Shown here: piece after piece, positions 17,577 to 36,584 of the stretch | Layout of the letters: each line of letters starts with the position of its first letter | Numbering within the stretch: position 1 is the first letter of the stretch | Source: Burkholderiales bacterium | Lineage (GTDB): Bacteria; Pseudomonadota; Gammaproteobacteria; Burkholderiales; SG8-39 | Direction of reading: 5' to 3' | DNA: 64,000 bases | NCBI GenBank assembly: GCA_036381055.1 | Contig: DASVDO010000016.1 | Span: 633-64,632 of the forward strand | Made by a program: the position numbers and the translations under genes | Notes under the pieces: model-generated | Told to the model about the DNA's origin: nothing | Databases searched by the model: none | What the model saw: only the letters and a program-made list of their open reading frames with translations

Positions 17577-18347
17577 ATGAGGGAGGACGCCCCGCCGGCA
17601 GCGCCCGCGGTCCGCGTGCGCGCGCTCGTCAAGCGCTACCGCAAGCGGGTCGCCCTCGACGGCATCGACCTGACGATCGCGCGCGGCGAGGCCTTCGGCC
17701 TGGTGGGCGCCAACGGCGCCGGCAAGACCACGCTGCTGCGCTGCCTGCTCGACCTCGCCTCGCCCGACGCCGGCACGGTGGAAATCTTCGGCTCGCCCGC
17801 CGGCGACCCGGCGGCGAGGCGGCGCCTCGCCTACCTGCCCGAGCGCTTCGTGCCGCCGTACTACCTGCGCGGCGAGGAATTCCTGCGCGCCATGCTCGCG
17901 CTGATGCGCGAGCGCTACCGGCCGGAGGCGGCGGCGGCGCTGTGCGCCGAGCTCGAGCTCGAGCCGGCGGCGCTGGCGCGGCCGGTGCGCGCGCTGTCGA
18001 AGGGCATGACGCAGAAGCTCGGCCTCGCGGCGTGCTTCCTCGCGCGACGGGAGCTGTACGTGCTCGACGAGCCGATGAGCGGCCTTGACCCTGCCGCGCG
18101 CGTCGCGGTGAAATCGGTCCTTCAGCGGCTGGCCGGCGAGGGCCGCACGCTGCTCTTCACCTCGCACGTGCTCGCCGACGTCGAAGAGCTGTGCTCGTCG
18201 ATCGCCGTGCTGCACCGCGCGCGTCTGCGCTTCCACGGCGCGCCGCGCGCGCTGTGCGCGAGCACCGGCGAAGCCGGCCTGGAGCGCGCTTTCATGAAAT
18301 GCATCCGTGAGGAACCCGCTGACCCCCGGCGCGCCGCGCGCGCCTGA
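17577..18347 (+). CDS. ABC transporter ATP-binding protein (orphan here; probable partner permease at 34270)
   Basis: Last 256 aa of ORF 16617..18347(+), starting at ATG 17577 (MREDAPPAAP...). Walker A GANGAGKTT, signature variant LSKGMTQKL, Walker B LYVLDEPMSGLDP. Confidence 0.88.
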   Translation: MREDAPPAAPAVRVRALVKRYRKRVALDGIDLTIARGEAFGLVGANGAGKTTLLRCLLDLASPDAGTVEIFGSPAGDPAARRRLAYLPERFVPPYYLRGEEFLRAMLALMRERYRPEAAAALCAELELEPAALARPVRALSKGMTQKLGLAACFLARRELYVLDEPMSGLDPAARVAVKSVLQRLAGEGRTLLFTSHVLADVEELCSSIAVLHRARLRFHGAPRALCASTGEAGLERAFMKCIREEPADPRRAARA

Positions 18348-19734
18348 GGCCGCCGCCGCGCGGCCGGTGCTGCTGGTGGTCGACGACGACCGCCTGATCA
18401 CCGACACGCTCGCCTTCGCGCTCGGCGCCGACTTCGACGTGCACGCCTGCGACAGCCGGCCGGCGGCGATCGAGCTGCTGCGCGCGCTGGGCAGCGCGCC
18501 GCCGCTCGCGCTGGTCGACCTCGGGCTGCCGCCGGCGCCGCACTCGCCCGACGAGGGCTTCCAGCTGATCGCCGACCTGCTCGCGCACTCGCCGGCGATG
18601 AAGATCTTCGTGCTCTCGGGGCAGAACGACGCGGCGAACGCGCGCCACGCGCGCGCCCTCGGCGCCTGGGAGTTCGTCGCCAAGCCGGCCGACCCGGCGC
18701 TGCTCCGGCGGCTGCTCGCGCGCGCGCTCGCCGTGCCCGCCGCGGAGGACGGCGAGCTGCTGGGCGAGAGCCCGGCGCTCGCCAAGCTGAAGAGCCAGAT
18801 CGCGCAGTTCGCCGCCGCGCCCTACCCGGTGCTGATCGAGGGCGAGTCGGGCAGCGGCAAGGAGCTGGTCGCGGCGAGCCTGCACCGCCTGTCGCCGCGC
18901 GCCGCGCGCCCGTACCTGACGCTCAACTGCGCGGCGATCTCGCCGACGCTGGTCGAGCCGACGCTGTTCGGCTACGTGAAGGGCGCGTTCACCGGCGCGG
19001 CCGGCAACAAGCCGGGCTACTTCGAGGACGCGCAGGACGGCACGCTGCTGCTCGACGAGATCGGCGAGCTGCCGCTCGAGCTGCAGGCGAAGCTGCTGCG
19101 CGTGCTGGAGAACGGCGAATACCAGCGCGTCGGCGAGACGCAGCGGCGCACCGCGCGCTGCCGCGTCATCGCCGCCACCAACCGCGACCTGCGCCGCGAC
19201 GTGAAGAACGGCGGCTTCCGCGCCGATCTCTACCACCGCCTGTCGGTGTTCGCGCTGAGCGTGCCGCCGCTGCGCGAGATGGAGGGCGACAAGCTGCTGC
19301 TGCTCGAGCATTTCCGCCGGCTGTGCGCCGCGCGCTCGGGCGTGCAGCCCTTCGAGCTCGACCCGGCGGCGCTCGCGCGCTGGCAGCGCTACGACTTCCC
19401 GGGCAACGTGCGCGAGCTGCGCAACGTGGTGATCCGCCTCACCGCCAAGTACCCCGGCCAGCGGCTCTCGGTCGCCGAGCTCGAGCCCGAGCTCGACCTG
19501 GAGGCGCCGCCCGCCGGCCGCGACGGCGGCATCGCCGAGCAGGCGCTGCGCCAGCTCGAGCGCGGCGCGGCGTTCAACCTGGACGAGACGCTGAAGGCCT
19601 GGGAGCGCGGCTACATCGAGGCGGCGCTGCGCCTGACGCGCGGCAACGTCAGCCAGGCGGCGCGGCTGCTCGGCGTGAACCGCACCACGCTCTACAGCCG
19701 CATGTCGAGCGACGCGCCGGACAAGGAGAAATAG
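18307..19734 (+). CDS. Sigma-54-dependent response regulator (receiver + AAA+ with GAFTGA + Fis-type HTH), PilR/PrsR-like
   Basis: Receiver LLVVDDD...[10 protein letters not shown], Walker A GESGSGKE, sigma-54 contact loop VKGAFTGA, C-terminal [24 protein letters not shown]. The start is either GTG 18307 (41-nt overlap with the ABC gene) or GTG 18367. Confidence 0.9.
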
Positions 19735-19738
19735 CGCC

Positions 19739-21163
19739 GTGGCGCTGTACCTCGAGCACTTCGGCCTGAACGAGCCGCCGTTCACCATCACGCCGCACAC
19801 CGAGTTCTTCTTCGAGGGCGCCGAGCGCGGCGCGACGCTGGAGGCGCTCACCTACGCGGTGCTGCACGACGAGGGCATCGTCAAGGTGTCGGGCGAGGTG
19901 GGCAGCGGCAAGACCATGCTCTGCCGCATGCTGATGGAGCGGCTGCCGCGCGAGGTGGCGACCATCTACATCGCCACGCCCTCGCTCGGCAGCGAGGAGA
20001 TCCTGCACGCCATCGCCGACGACCTCGACCTCGCGCTGCCCGAGCGGCGCACCGCGGCGCTGCGCGCGCTGCAGGAGCACCTGATCGGCCTGTACGGCGC
20101 CGGGCGGCGCGTCGTGGTGCTGATCGACGAGGCGCACGTCATGCCCGACGACACGCTCGAGCAGGTGCGGCTGCTCTCCAACCTCGAGTCGAACCGGCAC
20201 AAGCTGCTGCACATCGTGCTGTTCGGCCAGCCCGAGCTCGACGAGACGCTCGCCAAGCCGTCGCTGCGCCAGCTGCGCGACCGCATCACCCAGGCGTTCC
20301 GCATGCGCCCGCTCGCCGGCGCCGAGGTGGCGAAGTACCTCTCGTTCCGCATGCGCGCCGCAGGCTACCGCGGACCGGAGCTCTTCTCGTCCGGCGCCGT
20401 GGCGCGCATCGCCCGCGCCTCGGCCGGCCTGACGCGGCGCATCAACATCCTCGCCGACAAGGCGCTGCTCGCCGCCTACACCGAGAACACCCACGCCATC
20501 ACCGCGCGCCATGCCAGGGCGGCCATCGCCGACGCCGAGCTTGCCACGGCGCCCGGCGGCGGCCGCGCGCGGCGCAGCGCCGCGTTCGTGGCGGCGGCGC
20601 TCGTCGCCGGCCTCGCGCTCGGCGCCGCGATGGCGGGCTGGTACGGCCAGGCGCCGCAGGCGCCCGCCGCGCCGGAAGAGGAGCTGCTCGACGACCGGGC
20701 CCTGGTCGAGCTCGCCGCGGCGGAGGCCGAGGCGCAGGTCGCGCCGCCGGCGCCGGCCCCGCCGCCGGCGCCCCCCGAGCCGCTGCTCAGCCCCGAGCAG
20801 GCGCGCCGCATGGAGGGCTATTCCACCGCCGGCCAGCGGCTGCTCGGCGAGCGCATCGCCGCGACGCGCGAGCTGCTCGGGAAGGTCGCCGGCGACCATT
20901 ACGCGCTCGGGCTCTTCCTCACCAGCAACGTCGACCCGGCGCGCATGGAGCGTTTCCTCATGCGGGCGCGCGACATGGTGCCGCTCAGCGAGCTCTACGT
21001 GATCCCGATGCGCACCGGCGAGCGCTATCGCCTGCGGGTCGTGTACGGGAACTATCCCACGCTCGCCGCAGCCGAGGAGGCGAGCCGCCACCTGCCGCCC
21101 AAGTACCAGCGCGAGTTCGACGTCACGACGCACAGCTTCAAGGAGTTGCGCGGGCAATTGTAA
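19739..21163 (+). CDS. ExeA/MshM-like AAA+ ATPase with TM segment, Pro/Ala-rich linker and C-terminal DamX-type SPOR-like domain
   Basis: N-terminus LEHFGLNEPPFTITPHTEFFF, Walker A GEVGSGKT, Walker B VVVLIDEAH, and FGQPELDETL (GspA/ExeA family). TM segment AFVAAALVAGLALGAAMAGWY. C-terminus YALGLFLTSN...YVIPMRTGERYRLRVVYGNYPTLAAAEEASRHLP resembles SPOR domains. Confidence 0.85.
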   Translation: MALYLEHFGLNEPPFTITPHTEFFFEGAERGATLEALTYAVLHDEGIVKVSGEVGSGKTMLCRMLMERLPREVATIYIATPSLGSEEILHAIADDLDLALPERRTAALRALQEHLIGLYGAGRRVVVLIDEAHVMPDDTLEQVRLLSNLESNRHKLLHIVLFGQPELDETLAKPSLRQLRDRITQAFRMRPLAGAEVAKYLSFRMRAAGYRGPELFSSGAVARIARASAGLTRRINILADKALLAAYTENTHAITARHARAAIADAELATAPGGGRARRSAAFVAAALVAGLALGAAMAGWYGQAPQAPAAPEEELLDDRALVELAAAEAEAQVAPPAPAPPPAPPEPLLSPEQARRMEGYSTAGQRLLGERIAATRELLGKVAGDHYALGLFLTSNVDPARMERFLMRARDMVPLSELYVIPMRTGERYRLRVVYGNYPTLAAAEEASRHLPPKYQREFDVTTHSFKELRGQL

Positions 21164-35879: not shown

Positions 35880-36536
35880 ATGAAAAGGACAAAAGGCTTC
35901 ACGCTGGTCGAGATCGCGATCGTGCTCGTGATCATCGGGCTGCTGCTCGGCGGCATCCTGAAAGGCCAGGAAATGATCACGCAGGCGAAGATCAAGAACG
36001 TCATCGCCGACATGTCGGGCGTCTCCGCCGCGATGTACGGCTATCAGGACCGCTACAAGGCGCTCCCGGGCGACGACAAGCTGGCGACCCGCTGGAGCGG
36101 CGCCACCGCAGGTGACGGCGACGGCATCATCAGCGGCAAGTGGACCGCCACGAGCACCGAGGCGCTCAATTTCTGGGACCACCTGCGGCGCTCCGGCTTC
36201 ATCTCGGGCAGCGGCGCGGAGAACCCGTTCAACGCGGTCTCGGGCAAGCTCGGCGTGCAGACCGGCGACGGGCCGGCGGCCGGCTCGAACCCGGGCAGCG
36301 TGCTGCAGGAGTCGACCGGCTCGGGCACCGCGTTCTCGAGCCTGATCCTGTGCAGCGGCAACCTGCCCGACAAGATCGCGGTGTCGGTCGACTCGCAGAT
36401 GGACGACGGCATCGGCACCAAGGGCAGCGTGCGCGGCATGCTGCAGAGCGCGCCCAACCCGGCGACCCTCTCCGCGACGGCAAGCGCGTACGCGGAAGAC
36501 GGCGTGAGCACCTACGTCGTCTGCCGCCTGCTCTAG
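35880..36536 (+). CDS. Type IV major pilin (prepilin with N-terminal cleavage/methylation domain; MshA/PilA-like)
   Basis: MKRTKGFTLVEIAIVLVIIGLLLGGILKGQE. C-terminal Cys pair (LILCSG...YVVCRLL) consistent with a D-region disulfide. Own sigma-54 promoter and terminator. Confidence 0.92.
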   Translation: MKRTKGFTLVEIAIVLVIIGLLLGGILKGQEMITQAKIKNVIADMSGVSAAMYGYQDRYKALPGDDKLATRWSGATAGDGDGIISGKWTATSTEALNFWDHLRRSGFISGSGAENPFNAVSGKLGVQTGDGPAAGSNPGSVLQESTGSGTAFSSLILCSGNLPDKIAVSVDSQMDDGIGTKGSVRGMLQSAPNPATLSATASAYAEDGVSTYVVCRLL

Positions 36537-36558
36537 GCGCCCTCCCCGATTGCATTGG

Positions 36559-36582
36559 GCCGGCGAAAGCCGGCTTTTTTTT
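36559..36582 (+). terminator. Rho-independent terminator after the pilin gene
   Basis: GCCGGC-GAAA-GCCGGC followed by T8, 23 nt after the pilin stop. It abuts the stop of the convergent antiporter gene. Confidence 0.85.
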
Positions 36583-36584
36583 GC

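Follow-up and report, generated by a model that had tools for sequence, protein, structure and literature searches.

Type IV filaments bring about adhesion, the formation of biofilms, motility, the uptake of DNA, and secretion. Among them, systems of the mannose-sensitive haemagglutinin type (MSH, with the MSHA pilus) are encoded at a single locus, invariably come without a prepilin peptidase, and have as their defining genes mshA, mshE, mshG and mshL together with mshM (Denise et al. 2019, PMC6668835). The MSHA pilus of Vibrio cholerae uses a PilT that is encoded elsewhere (PMC9815625). In Aeromonas caviae, whose MSHA locus was annotated here from a chromosome held in PLSDB, the genes follow the order H-I-I2-J-K-L-M-N-E-G-F-B-A-C-D-O-P-Q. 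Here we describe a locus at positions 17577-36584 of a 64-kb stretch of DNA (64,000 nt, hereafter the window) from an uncultured soil bacterium of the Burkholderiales (contig DASVDO010000016.1), which is a real and complete type IV filament (pilus) gene cluster related to the MSHA pilus. The core of its preliminary description, i.e. an MSHA-type filament locus under sigma-54 and two-component control, with a gene order other than that of Vibrio and extending from mla to kefC-kdsD, is supported. The locus probably encodes an MSHA-like type IV pilus of the MSH branch, which forms a distinct, uncharacterised lineage ancestral to a broad group of uncultured Betaproteobacteria. This lineage is apparently undescribed, unstudied and confined to uncultured organisms within the searches made, and searches of the literature on MSHA-type pili in Betaproteobacteria, Rhodocyclaceae and Burkholderiales returned nothing relevant. 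The new elements reported here are a sigma-54 promoter with tandem palindromes at the pilin gene, a chromosomal site shared by many Betaproteobacteria, a set of clade-limited ABC genes, and the divergence of two pilin-like genes, g11 and g12.

Comparison with MSH systems

The locus was compared with the MSHA locus of A. caviae and an MSH-type locus of Legionella adelaidensis, as well as with three loci resembling the type II secretion system (T2SS), canonical GspE, XcpR and PilB genes, and the bfp operon. In hhalign comparisons, family alignments were matched to individual sequences of Aeromonas, Legionella, Comamonas, Acidisoma, Skermanella and enteropathogenic Escherichia coli (EPEC). All sixteen open reading frames (ORFs) of the preliminary description, here called g01 to g16 in map order and lying on the forward strand with the exception of g13, have the codon-position signature of true genes (G+C at third codon positions, GC3, of 0.92-0.99, and more G+C at first than at second positions, in a genome of about 72% G+C), and most family assignments made at that stage are confirmed by matches to Pfam and NCBIfam. 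Neighbouring genes from g03 or g04 through g12 either touch or share a few bases, an arrangement resembling a translationally coupled operon. Convergent to g12, and overlapping its end by 37 nt, is the kinase gene g13, g14 and g15 form a short divergent pair, and the pilin gene g16 stands alone as a monocistronic unit.

Like the MSHA pili of V. cholerae and Aeromonas (mshHIJKLMNEGF / mshBACDOPQ), the system is encoded at a single locus without a prepilin peptidase or a dedicated retraction ATPase, and it combines a probable lipoprotein secretin of the MshL type, an AAA+ protein of the MshM type, a TPR protein of the MshN type, an ATPase with an MshEN domain and an MshG-like platform, with the L/M-N-E-G genes adjacent to one another. 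All components lie within 19 kb, and neither an A24 prepilin peptidase nor a second, PilT-like ATPase was detected by tblastn across the 64-kb window, in line with the first inspection of the sequence, which had listed prepilin peptidase and PilT/PilU as missing. Given the rule for MSH systems (PMC6668835), the absent peptidase and the single-locus layout are normal and not peculiarities of this locus. Proteins g03 and g07 correspond to the defining components MshM and MshG. The features of the MSH model that are not found here, i.e. mshI/I2/J/K, mshF, mshO/P/Q and the canonical gene order, are accessory in that model and their lack does not exclude membership. No equivalent of MshF or MshH was found in the locus. 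The gene order M-L-N-E-G followed by I/J/K-like genes, as against I-J-K-L-M-N-E-G in both Aeromonas and Legionella, bears out the unusual arrangement claimed for the locus at the outset.

Conservation and chromosomal site

Relatives were collected in a pattern scan with the family alignment of g08, restricted to one genome per species. This gave 60 loci, every one from Burkholderiales or Betaproteobacteria and from a metagenome-assembled genome (MAG) or a single-cell genome; a few are obviously mislabelled. The approximately 26 loci long enough to be judged contain all sixteen genes in the same order between mlaF and a kefC-like gene, with median identities to the window proteins of 91% for g06, 81% for g07, 78% for g02 and 68% for g08, followed by 59% for g16, 48% for g12 and 33% for g11. 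The g08 family is large (2131 clusters at 50% identity with E <= 0.001 in an exhaustive profile search of a metagenomic library), and its named members, in MAGs of Rhodocyclaceae, Sterolibacteriaceae, Georgfuchsia and Ca. Nitricoxidivorans perseverans, are all annotated as hypothetical. No cultured host was found among the 60 loci, all from MAGs or single-cell genomes, or among the named matches of the second search, every one of them also a MAG.

Three deep relatives (L075-L077, from Ca. Nitricoxidivorans and from two MAGs, one of Rhodocyclaceae and one labelled "Gammaproteobacteria") share a core of 13 genes in the same order: regulator, g03-like protein, secretin, TPR protein, ATPase, platform, g08-, g09- and g10-like proteins, a large pilin-like protein (394-1104 aa in these loci), minor pilin, convergent kinase and pilin. 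Their ATPases are 70-71% identical to g06 and their g08 homologs 33-35% identical to that of the window. Each of these loci starts directly after an ABC-ATPase gene in the position of mlaF, with MlaE beyond it in L075. On the downstream side, kefC and then kdsD follow in L076, kdsD follows directly in L077, and an unrelated two-component gene pair follows in L075.

In the window, the locus is flanked by genes for MlaD/E/F on one side and for a KefC-like protein, KdsD, KdsC, LptC, LptB and RpoN on the other, so that the annotated neighbours match the envelope-gene flanks (mla; kefC-kdsD) proposed from the bare sequence. The rpoN gene (41959-43413), 5.4 kb downstream of the pilin gene, is part of a conserved kdsD-kdsC-lptC-lptA-lptB-rpoN block. 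The junction between mlaF and kdsD is a classical chromosomal one, known from E. coli, and the pilus locus occupies this junction. Since the same site is used in the clade of the window and in the deep relatives, the locus is old, vertically kept and ancestral. The picture of a locus "wedged" between mla and kefC-kdsD holds for its position, but not in the sense of a recent insertion, given that distant Betaproteobacteria share the site. Recent horizontal insertion was considered and ruled out by the site common to some 26 relatives and the deep relatives, by native GC3, and by a G+C content not below that of the flanks (0.727 for the whole locus, versus 0.713 and 0.712). Two spot counts given in the preliminary description as a sign of a less G+C-rich pilin region (34/60 and 46/60) are exact, but the locus overall is not poorer in G+C than its flanks. 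The pilin gene itself has a native GC3 of 0.95 and its promoter region a G+C content of 0.50, and the low G+C content of the pilin region is due to amino-acid composition and an A/T-rich promoter region, not to foreign origin. The lineage has thus been kept at one site in many abundant uncultured Betaproteobacteria of soil and wastewater, including Burkholderiales MAGs, Rhodocyclaceae, Sterolibacteriaceae and Ca. Nitricoxidivorans, with several of its genes annotated only as hypothetical proteins.

Assembly machinery

In sequence, the secretin, the platform and the AAA+ protein all come nearest to the MSH references. The outer-membrane secretin of MshL type, g04 (21256-22968), matches the Pfam Secretin domain (3.8e-29). 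Its best NCBIfam model is MshL (TIGR02519) with 215.8 bits, under the cutoff of 250.2, followed by GspD (125 bits, cutoff 351) and PilQ (75 bits, cutoff 284), and in BLAST it scored 153 bits with MshL of Legionella and 127 bits with MshL of Aeromonas versus at most 94 bits with GspD. A lipobox-like LAAAC motif at residue 15 indicates that g04 is probably a lipoprotein, in agreement with its initial designation as a lipoprotein secretin. The inner-membrane platform protein of the GspF/PilC/MshG family, g07 (26126-27328), has two T2SSF domains (1.5e-51), and MshG of Aeromonas, the only MshG among five references, was its best match (194 bits versus 141-177 bits for T2SS-like GspF and 29 bits for BfpE), as anticipated by the label GspF/MshG.

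The third of these components, g03 (19739-21163), starts with an ExeA/MshM-like AAA+ ATPase domain (Pfam AAA_22, 8e-28). Residues 3-267 are 46% identical to MshM of Aeromonas and 40% identical to that of Legionella, the similarity to MshM covering the entire AAA+ domain (E 2.5e-73; 100% probability in hhalign), and the only NCBIfam model matched was TIGR03015 (209 bits, below cutoff). A transmembrane (TM) segment at residues 281-299 and a periplasmic SPOR-like domain follow. The C-terminal half of the window protein has no Pfam match even at E 10. Pfam SPOR is matched by 7/8 orthologues (best 3.3e-5), and the SPOR domain of DamX is the top PDB match of the family profile (E 0.065). It is through these orthologues that the SPOR-like C-terminus noticed at first is borne out. 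In g03, an ExeA-like AAA+ domain is therefore combined with a TM segment and a domain for peptidoglycan binding, whereas the MshM of Aeromonas (295 aa) has neither of the latter two. The adjacent g05 (22965-24386) is a bitopic, MshN/GspB-like protein (TM at 126-144) that contains a linker rich in Pro and Ala and, at the C-terminus, a TPR domain (Pfam TPR_2, TPR_16 and TPR_19). Its TPR part aligns with MshN of Aeromonas at 86% hhalign probability. Of its earlier description as a GspB-like TPR protein the TPR half was recovered, but Pfam T2SSB was not matched. Its likeness to GspB presumably lies in an N-terminal motif alone.

The extension ATPase g06 (24376-26115), of the GspE/PilB/MshE family as first assigned, carries an N-terminal MshEN domain of the c-di-GMP-receptor type (Pfam T2SSE 7e-128, MshEN 2.7e-15). 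The c-di-GMP motif domain NF053729 is matched with 59.4 bits, above its curated cutoff of 38, and both equivalog models remain under cutoff (GspE 529 bits, cutoff 630; PilB 524 bits, cutoff 676). In the alignment, the tandem MshEN motif is found at residues 22-45 and 52-71 and is absent from the classical GspE references; Walker A is at residue 335 and CxxC occurs twice. Identities to MshE, GspE and PilB references range from 37 to 43% (GspE 43%, MshE 37-38%), and sequence matches in the PDB are similarly split between PilF/PilB and GspE. In a tree of 17 sequences, built by neighbour joining only on 524 columns with few references (100 bootstraps, BfpD as outgroup), the g06 clade sits on a long branch of its own, outside both the MshE clade and the GspE clade. 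Support was 100% for MshE (Aeromonas and Legionella), 78% for the T2SS group, and at most 12% along the backbone. Nesting of the ATPase in a canonical MSHA clade, named beforehand as a result that would speak for an ordinary MSHA pilus, was thus not seen in this small tree, and it is for this reason that "MSHA-like" is the right term, not "MSHA orthologue".

Three genes downstream of the platform gene encode putative inner-membrane alignment proteins. The product of g08 (27331-28866) consists of a PilM-like actin-fold domain, a TM helix (308-326) and a periplasmic alpha/beta domain. It has no match in Pfam, even at E 10, or in NCBIfam, and tblastn of g08 against PLSDB found nothing. Its AlphaFold (AF2) model (mean predicted local distance difference test, pLDDT, of 75) has as top Foldseek matches the PilM proteins of Pseudomonas aeruginosa (5eoy, E 3e-7), Thermus thermophilus (2ych) and Myxococcus xanthus (3jc8_Ma), and also the cytoplasmic domain of EpsL (1yf5), all with modest TM-scores of 0.40-0.43 on the target. 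A PilM-like fold joined to a TM helix and a periplasmic domain is the architecture of GspL and MshI, and "PilM-PilN fusion", the phrase chosen in the preliminary description, is therefore a fair one. The following g09 (28863-29471) is bitopic, with an N-terminal TM segment (11-29) and a coiled coil, and is assigned to PilO/GspM/MshJ by topology and gene position only, a faint match to GspM (NF041618, 0.006) being the only one to any family. These features agree with the PilO-like label given earlier, but no hhalign match to MshJ or GspM was obtained. A small exported protein with a signal peptide, g10 (29468-29893), occupies the position of MshK/PilP, as expected for the small periplasmic protein announced there. 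It has no Pfam or PDB match in the eight orthologues examined, the window protein itself matches nothing in Pfam even at E 10, and its identity is 53-76% in the clade of the window and 33-40% in the deep relatives. Comparison of g08, g09, g10 and g11 with Msh, Gsp and Bfp proteins gave nothing at an hhalign probability of at least 50% except pilin N-termini.

Pilins and their variation

Only three pilin-like genes, g11, g12 and g16, are present, the number counted from the outset. The major pilin g16 (35880-36536) has 218 aa (212 when mature), a 6-residue leader, Phe1, Glu5 and a C-terminal Cys pair (Cys158/Cys215), with an N_methyl match of 5.9e-7 and GFTLVE at residue 6. Almost no variation is seen in its first 35 residues, L075-L077 included, and its similarity to MshA of Aeromonas is confined to the N-terminal 25 residues (hhalign 95%). 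The minor pilin g12 (31712-32527; 271 aa) was correctly recognised as such, with GFTLVE at residue 14 and an N_methyl match of 2.6e-6. For both g16 and g12 the best NCBIfam match is GspG, and it is weak.

The third gene, g11 (29890-31719), encodes a pilin-like protein of 609 aa without Glu5 and with a large Cys-rich globular part, and is a candidate tip subunit or adhesin. The N-terminus (SG/AALLLL, with a TM segment at 10-28) presumably resembles those of GspK/PilX-type tip pilins. The AF2 model is confident (pLDDT 88.5, predicted TM-score 0.83) and features a 55-residue N-terminal helix like pilin alpha-1, yet no PDB fold match was found at E <= 0.001 (best E 0.039) and no Pfam match even at E 10, and a look-up of the exact sequence returned a single short Logan contig. 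Paralogy to g12 is seen over residues 15-144 (E 5e-4), and the two proteins have a GRLPCP motif in common. The former comparison with GspK and MshP is appropriate to the Glu5-less pilin N-terminus, but no match to MshP extends beyond it.

The g11 gene is the most variable of the locus (28-63% identity among relatives). Across 33 loci, its identity rises and falls with that of g12 (r = 0.80) but is uncorrelated with that of the ATPase or g08 (r about 0), and the identity of g16 is likewise uncoupled from the machinery. An extreme case is L012 (12611-14900, corresponding to 29890-32527 of the window), which has the machinery most similar to that of the window (g06 95%) and yet the most divergent g11 (28%) and g12 (35%). 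This pattern suggests cassette exchange or diversifying selection. Variation of g11 together with g12 and apart from the machinery is what would be expected of exposed parts that diversify or are exchanged, and hence supports a role of the g11-g12 pair as tip or adhesin. With a confident model, no structural relative, and exchange or diversification along with g12, g11 is a candidate for the factor that decides what these bacteria adhere to.

Regulation of the pilin gene

A sigma-54 (-24/-12) promoter, TGGCAC-N5-TTGCT (35825-35840, forward strand), lies 39 nt 5' of the pilin ATG. It is the sole zero-mismatch match to the sigma-54 consensus in the 64 kb, with 0.02 expected by chance. The element GGYAY-N5-TTGC occurs in 28/29 loci, 27-58 nt upstream of the start of the pilin gene (background 0.0066 per 260 nt), and also precedes the pilin gene in L075-L077. 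Anchoring the upstream regions of related loci on this element revealed two TGTCG-N6-CGACA palindromes, TGTCGAGATTCCGACA and CGTCGGCAATTCGACA (35736-35771, unstranded; at 35736-35751 and 35756-35771), exactly 20 bp apart, which directly follow the g15 stop codon at about 85-105 nt upstream of the expected transcription start, and which represent the predicted enhancer (upstream activating sequence) for g02. They are the only two matches to TGTCG-N6-CGACA with at most one mismatch in the window. A site of this type occurs at the equivalent position in 28/29 loci, as a tandem pair in 19, and the palindrome (GTCGAAT…CGAC) also precedes the pilin gene in the deep relatives, as one site in L075 and L076 and as a pair in L077. 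Downstream of the gene, an intrinsic terminator (36557-36583, forward strand) consists of a stem-loop, GGGCCGGC-GAAA-GCCGGCTT (36557-36576), followed by T8, so that the major pilin gene has, as proposed, its own promoter and its own terminator. A scan for the sigma-70 consensus identified no promoter in the locus.

The likely activator is g02 (18307-19734), a response regulator and sigma-54 enhancer-binding protein with REC, AAA+ and Fis-type helix-turn-helix domains (Pfam Sigma54_activat 5e-63, in addition to Response_reg and HTH_8). The motifs expected from its first classification are intact, i.e. GAFTGA at residue 226, Walker A at 179, and the phospho-acceptor context DLGLP at 71. Its nearest specific NCBIfam models are NtrC (353 bits) and PrsR (331 bits), both below cutoff, with NorR at 333 bits, and its identity is 70-86% within the clade of the window and 61-64% in Rhodocyclaceae-type loci. 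The presumed partner, g13 (32491-34233, reverse strand), is a sensor histidine kinase with about seven TM segments. The call of a convergent multi-TM kinase is corroborated by a weak HATPase_c match (6e-5), seven hydrophobic segments, and complete H (HDIKN at 373), N, G1 and G2 boxes, with PrsK (TIGR02916, 48 bits over the kinase core) as best NCBIfam model. The kinase is kept in every related locus, L075-L077 included.

The locus thus contains what defines an NtrC-class two-component system, namely a REC and AAA+ protein with GAFTGA and helix-turn-helix, a -24/-12 promoter and upstream sites. The predicted sigma-54 control of the pilin gene is directly supported by a perfect, conserved promoter with tandem palindromes, and the claim of sigma-54 and two-component control is upheld by these elements together with the intact activator motifs. 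The layout of the palindromes is typical of sites for NtrC-class activators, which suggests that g02, phosphorylated by g13, would bind the TGTCG-N6-CGACA pair. This arrangement is reminiscent of the control of pilA by PilS-PilR in the type IVa pili (T4aP) of P. aeruginosa and M. xanthus, where a polytopic kinase and an NtrC-family activator are likewise encoded among pilus genes, and where a sigma-54 promoter with upstream tandem sites is found at a monocistronic major pilin gene. The models nearest to g13 and g02 are, however, PrsK/PrsR and NtrC, and the machinery is not of the T4aP kind, with no PilMNOPQ operon, PilT or PilD. There is also a likeness to the PrsK/PrsR pair of the XrtA/PEP-CTERM system with its ExeA-like ATPase, in that PrsR is among the top three models for g02, PrsK is the best for g13, and TIGR03015 is matched by g03. 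All three models remain below cutoff, however, XrtA exosortase, PEP-CTERM proteins and exopolysaccharide genes are absent, and the regulated gene is a pilin. The circuit, made up of kinase, activator, operator, sigma-54 promoter and pilin gene, is compact, defined to an unusual degree and directly testable.

Proposed working of the pilus

From the gene content, the domain families, the promoter, the palindromes and their conservation, we infer the following protein-protein and protein-DNA interactions and an adhesive function. The ATPase g06 would power the platform g07, which would be held by g08 (GspL/MshI-like), g09 (PilO/GspM-like) and the small periplasmic g10. The fibre would be a polymer of g16, probably primed or capped by the Glu5-less g11 together with g12, which would form a variable, surface-exposed binding end, and would leave the cell through g04, the probable lipoprotein secretin of MshL type. 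The ExeA-like g03, with its peptidoglycan-binding SPOR domain, and its TPR partner g05 may help to insert g04 through the cell wall. The polytopic kinase g13 would phosphorylate the enhancer-binding protein g02, which, bound to the two TGTCG-N6-CGACA palindromes, would activate the sigma-54 promoter of the pilin gene in a circuit of the PilS-PilR type. In addition, c-di-GMP may gate g06 via its MshEN domain. The locus indeed contains no GGDEF/EAL gene, as was pointed out early on, and input of c-di-GMP through MshEN is still possible. Prepilin processing and any retraction would depend on genes outside the locus, as in known MSH systems.

Affiliation of the locus

The locus is best described as a divergent MSH-like pilus lineage with T2SS-like traits, i.e. 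an ExeA-type anchor, a GspL-type fusion and a Glu5-less tip pilin. This mixture, with an ExeA-type anchor beside a GspL-type fusion, bears on the question of how these machines diverged. Several points weigh against assignment to the MSH branch. In sequence searches, no structural component reaches an NCBIfam equivalog cutoff, g06 appears outside the MshE clade in a tree with a weak backbone and is slightly more identical to GspE (43%), g08, g09 and g10 show no detectable similarity to MshI/J/K, GspL or GspM, and none of only three pilin-like genes matches MshB/C/D/O/P/Q beyond the N-terminus (hhalign). Binding of c-di-GMP by g06 is uncertain because the first Arg of its MshEN motif is replaced by His. 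Finally, no filament has been observed, and every carrier organism is uncultured.

These points leave some room for the possibility, which we regard as the less likely one, that the locus stands for a class of its own among type IV filaments, as yet without a name, apart from MSH, T2SS and T4aP and passed on vertically at the mlaF-kdsD junction in a large part of the Betaproteobacteria. Such a class would be characterised by its own inner-membrane alignment proteins g08-g10, an ExeA-like factor for secretin assembly with a SPOR anchor, a giant tip pilin with a fold unseen in solved structures, and an obligatory PilSR-like sigma-54 circuit with the operator TGTCG-N6-CGACA. Membership in T4aP is contradicted by PilQ and PilB scores below cutoff, by the lack of PilT and PilD in the window, and by the fusion of the PilM-like domain to a transmembrane part.

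At the other extreme, the locus could be a plain orthologue of the canonical MSHA pilus of Vibrio and Aeromonas with a shuffled gene order. Published trees of the type IV filament superfamily already hold MSH-labelled systems from the genomes JAAG001 and LECH001 (PMC6668835). Three components have MshL, MshG and MshM as their best references, and the single locus without prepilin peptidase is that of all MSH loci. The two genomes in these trees, which we take to be Janthinobacterium and Leptothrix, would moreover belong to the Burkholderiales. Against this, the ATPase, 37-38% identical to MshE, is outside the MshE reference pair, the cutoff of the MshL model is not reached, and the MshM-like protein has an extra TM segment and a SPOR domain. 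The equivalents of I, J and K are not homologous in sequence, g08 being alike at the level of fold only, and the order is M-L-N-E-G-I-J-K instead of I-J-K-L-M-N-E-G. There are three pilin-like genes in place of about seven, with no homology to MshO, MshP or MshQ beyond the N-terminus, and nothing like MshF or MshH. A sigma-54 two-component circuit acting on the pilin is built into the locus, whereas Aeromonas has a 647-aa ORF at the upstream mshH position, MshH being presumably a GGDEF/EAL protein. Plain orthology is therefore quite unlikely.

It is also rather improbable that the locus encodes a machine resembling type II secretion, in which a short periplasmic pseudopilus of g16 would push proteins through the secretin. 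Several features do recall the T2SS of Aeromonas and Vibrio with ExeA/ExeB (GspA/GspB): the AAA+ protein g03, with TM segment and peptidoglycan-binding domain, and its partner g05 are encoded beside the secretin, g08 has the fused architecture of GspL, with the cytoplasmic domain of EpsL among its fold matches, g09 is a bitopic protein of GspM type, and g11 is a tip pilin with a GspK-like, Glu5-less N-terminus. In addition, the identity of the ATPase is marginally highest to GspE (43%), and GspG is the best, if weak, NCBIfam match of g16 and g12. However, g03 contains SPOR instead of PG_binding_1, no match to GspC, GspN, GspH, GspI or GspJ was obtained with Pfam, NCBIfam or hhalign, the short secretin and the platform are nearer to MshL and MshG than to GspD and GspF, and the ATPase has an MshEN N-domain that classical GspE references lack. 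The major subunit is also large (212 aa mature), with a C-terminal, presumably disulfide-bonded Cys pair, and the separate strong sigma-54 promoter and terminator of its gene are typical of abundantly made pilins. Diversification of the surface subunits is also rapid. Machineries of this superfamily that have few minor pilins are able to act in DNA uptake, with which the sequence is compatible. A filament for competence, or another one without adhesive function, is nevertheless very improbable: no ComEA, ComEC or DprA gene was found in or beside the locus by Pfam, NCBIfam or flank annotation, and the large, variable tip protein g11 suits adhesion better.

Accessory genes and further observations

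Besides the conserved core of the MSH-like pilus, the locus includes three ABC-related genes, the identities of which are as originally given. The ABC transporter ATPase g01 (17577-18347; 256 aa) matches ABC_tran (2.3e-23), with Walker A GANGAGKT and signature LSKG, and is an accessory gene of the clade of the window, kept in 28 related loci. The ABC-2-type permease g14 (34270-35031) has six TM segments and a weak match to ABC2_membrane_3 (0.0048), and g15 (35028-35735) encodes a helical, TPR-like protein whose profile matches consensus TPR proteins in the PDB (1.8e-12, residues 83-108), with no Pfam match even at E 10. All three genes are absent from L075-L077 and are therefore a clade-specific add-on, not part of the conserved core. 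At the place of g14/g15, these relatives have a gene for a class III nucleotide cyclase (PF00211; L075 14661-15956, L076 14874-16199, L077 16772-18100), and an accessory module has evidently been swapped between lineages. In M. xanthus, the pilGHI ABC transporter genes sit next to the pilin gene in the pil cluster (PMC6060248). The ABC ATPase, permease and accessory gene near the pilin in the clade of the window resemble pilGHI by gene position alone.

The divergent starts of mlaF (reverse strand) and g01 are only about 18 nt apart (17558-17577). The gap contains a palindrome, GTAATATTAC, which is a possible shared operator of mlaF and g01. Where relatives lack g01, the corresponding gap measures about 80-180 nt.

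Scans with Rfam and for tRNA genes gave no RNA element in the locus. Outside it, a tRNA-Leu(CAG) call by ARAGORN at 44223-44312, under threshold with the Rfam tRNA model and situated in an ORF region of high GC3 (43925-45067), is probably a false positive. Among the relatives, L003, L008, L044, L048, L050 and L052 ("uncultured Enterobacteriaceae bacterium") and L029 ("Clostridia bacterium") carry a complete, high-G+C betaproteobacterial locus, so that the organism labels are almost certainly wrong or the contigs mis-binned. Two PLSDB plasmid records, L062 (NZ_AP026896.1, 4.94 Mb) and L070 (NZ_CP154629.1, 2.63 Mb), are of chromosome size and nearly unannotated. The MSHA locus in the PLSDB record of Aeromonas is complete, with an apparently shortened mshQ frame (356-aa ORF) followed by an unrelated reverse-strand ORF. 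The Legionella adelaidensis locus (L063, "plasmid 24", 2442-13866) is of MSH type and comprises four pilin genes and genes for MshI/I2/J/K-like proteins, MshL, an AAA ATPase, an MshN-like protein and the ATPase, at which it stops without an adjoining platform gene, cytochrome oxidase genes coming directly after.

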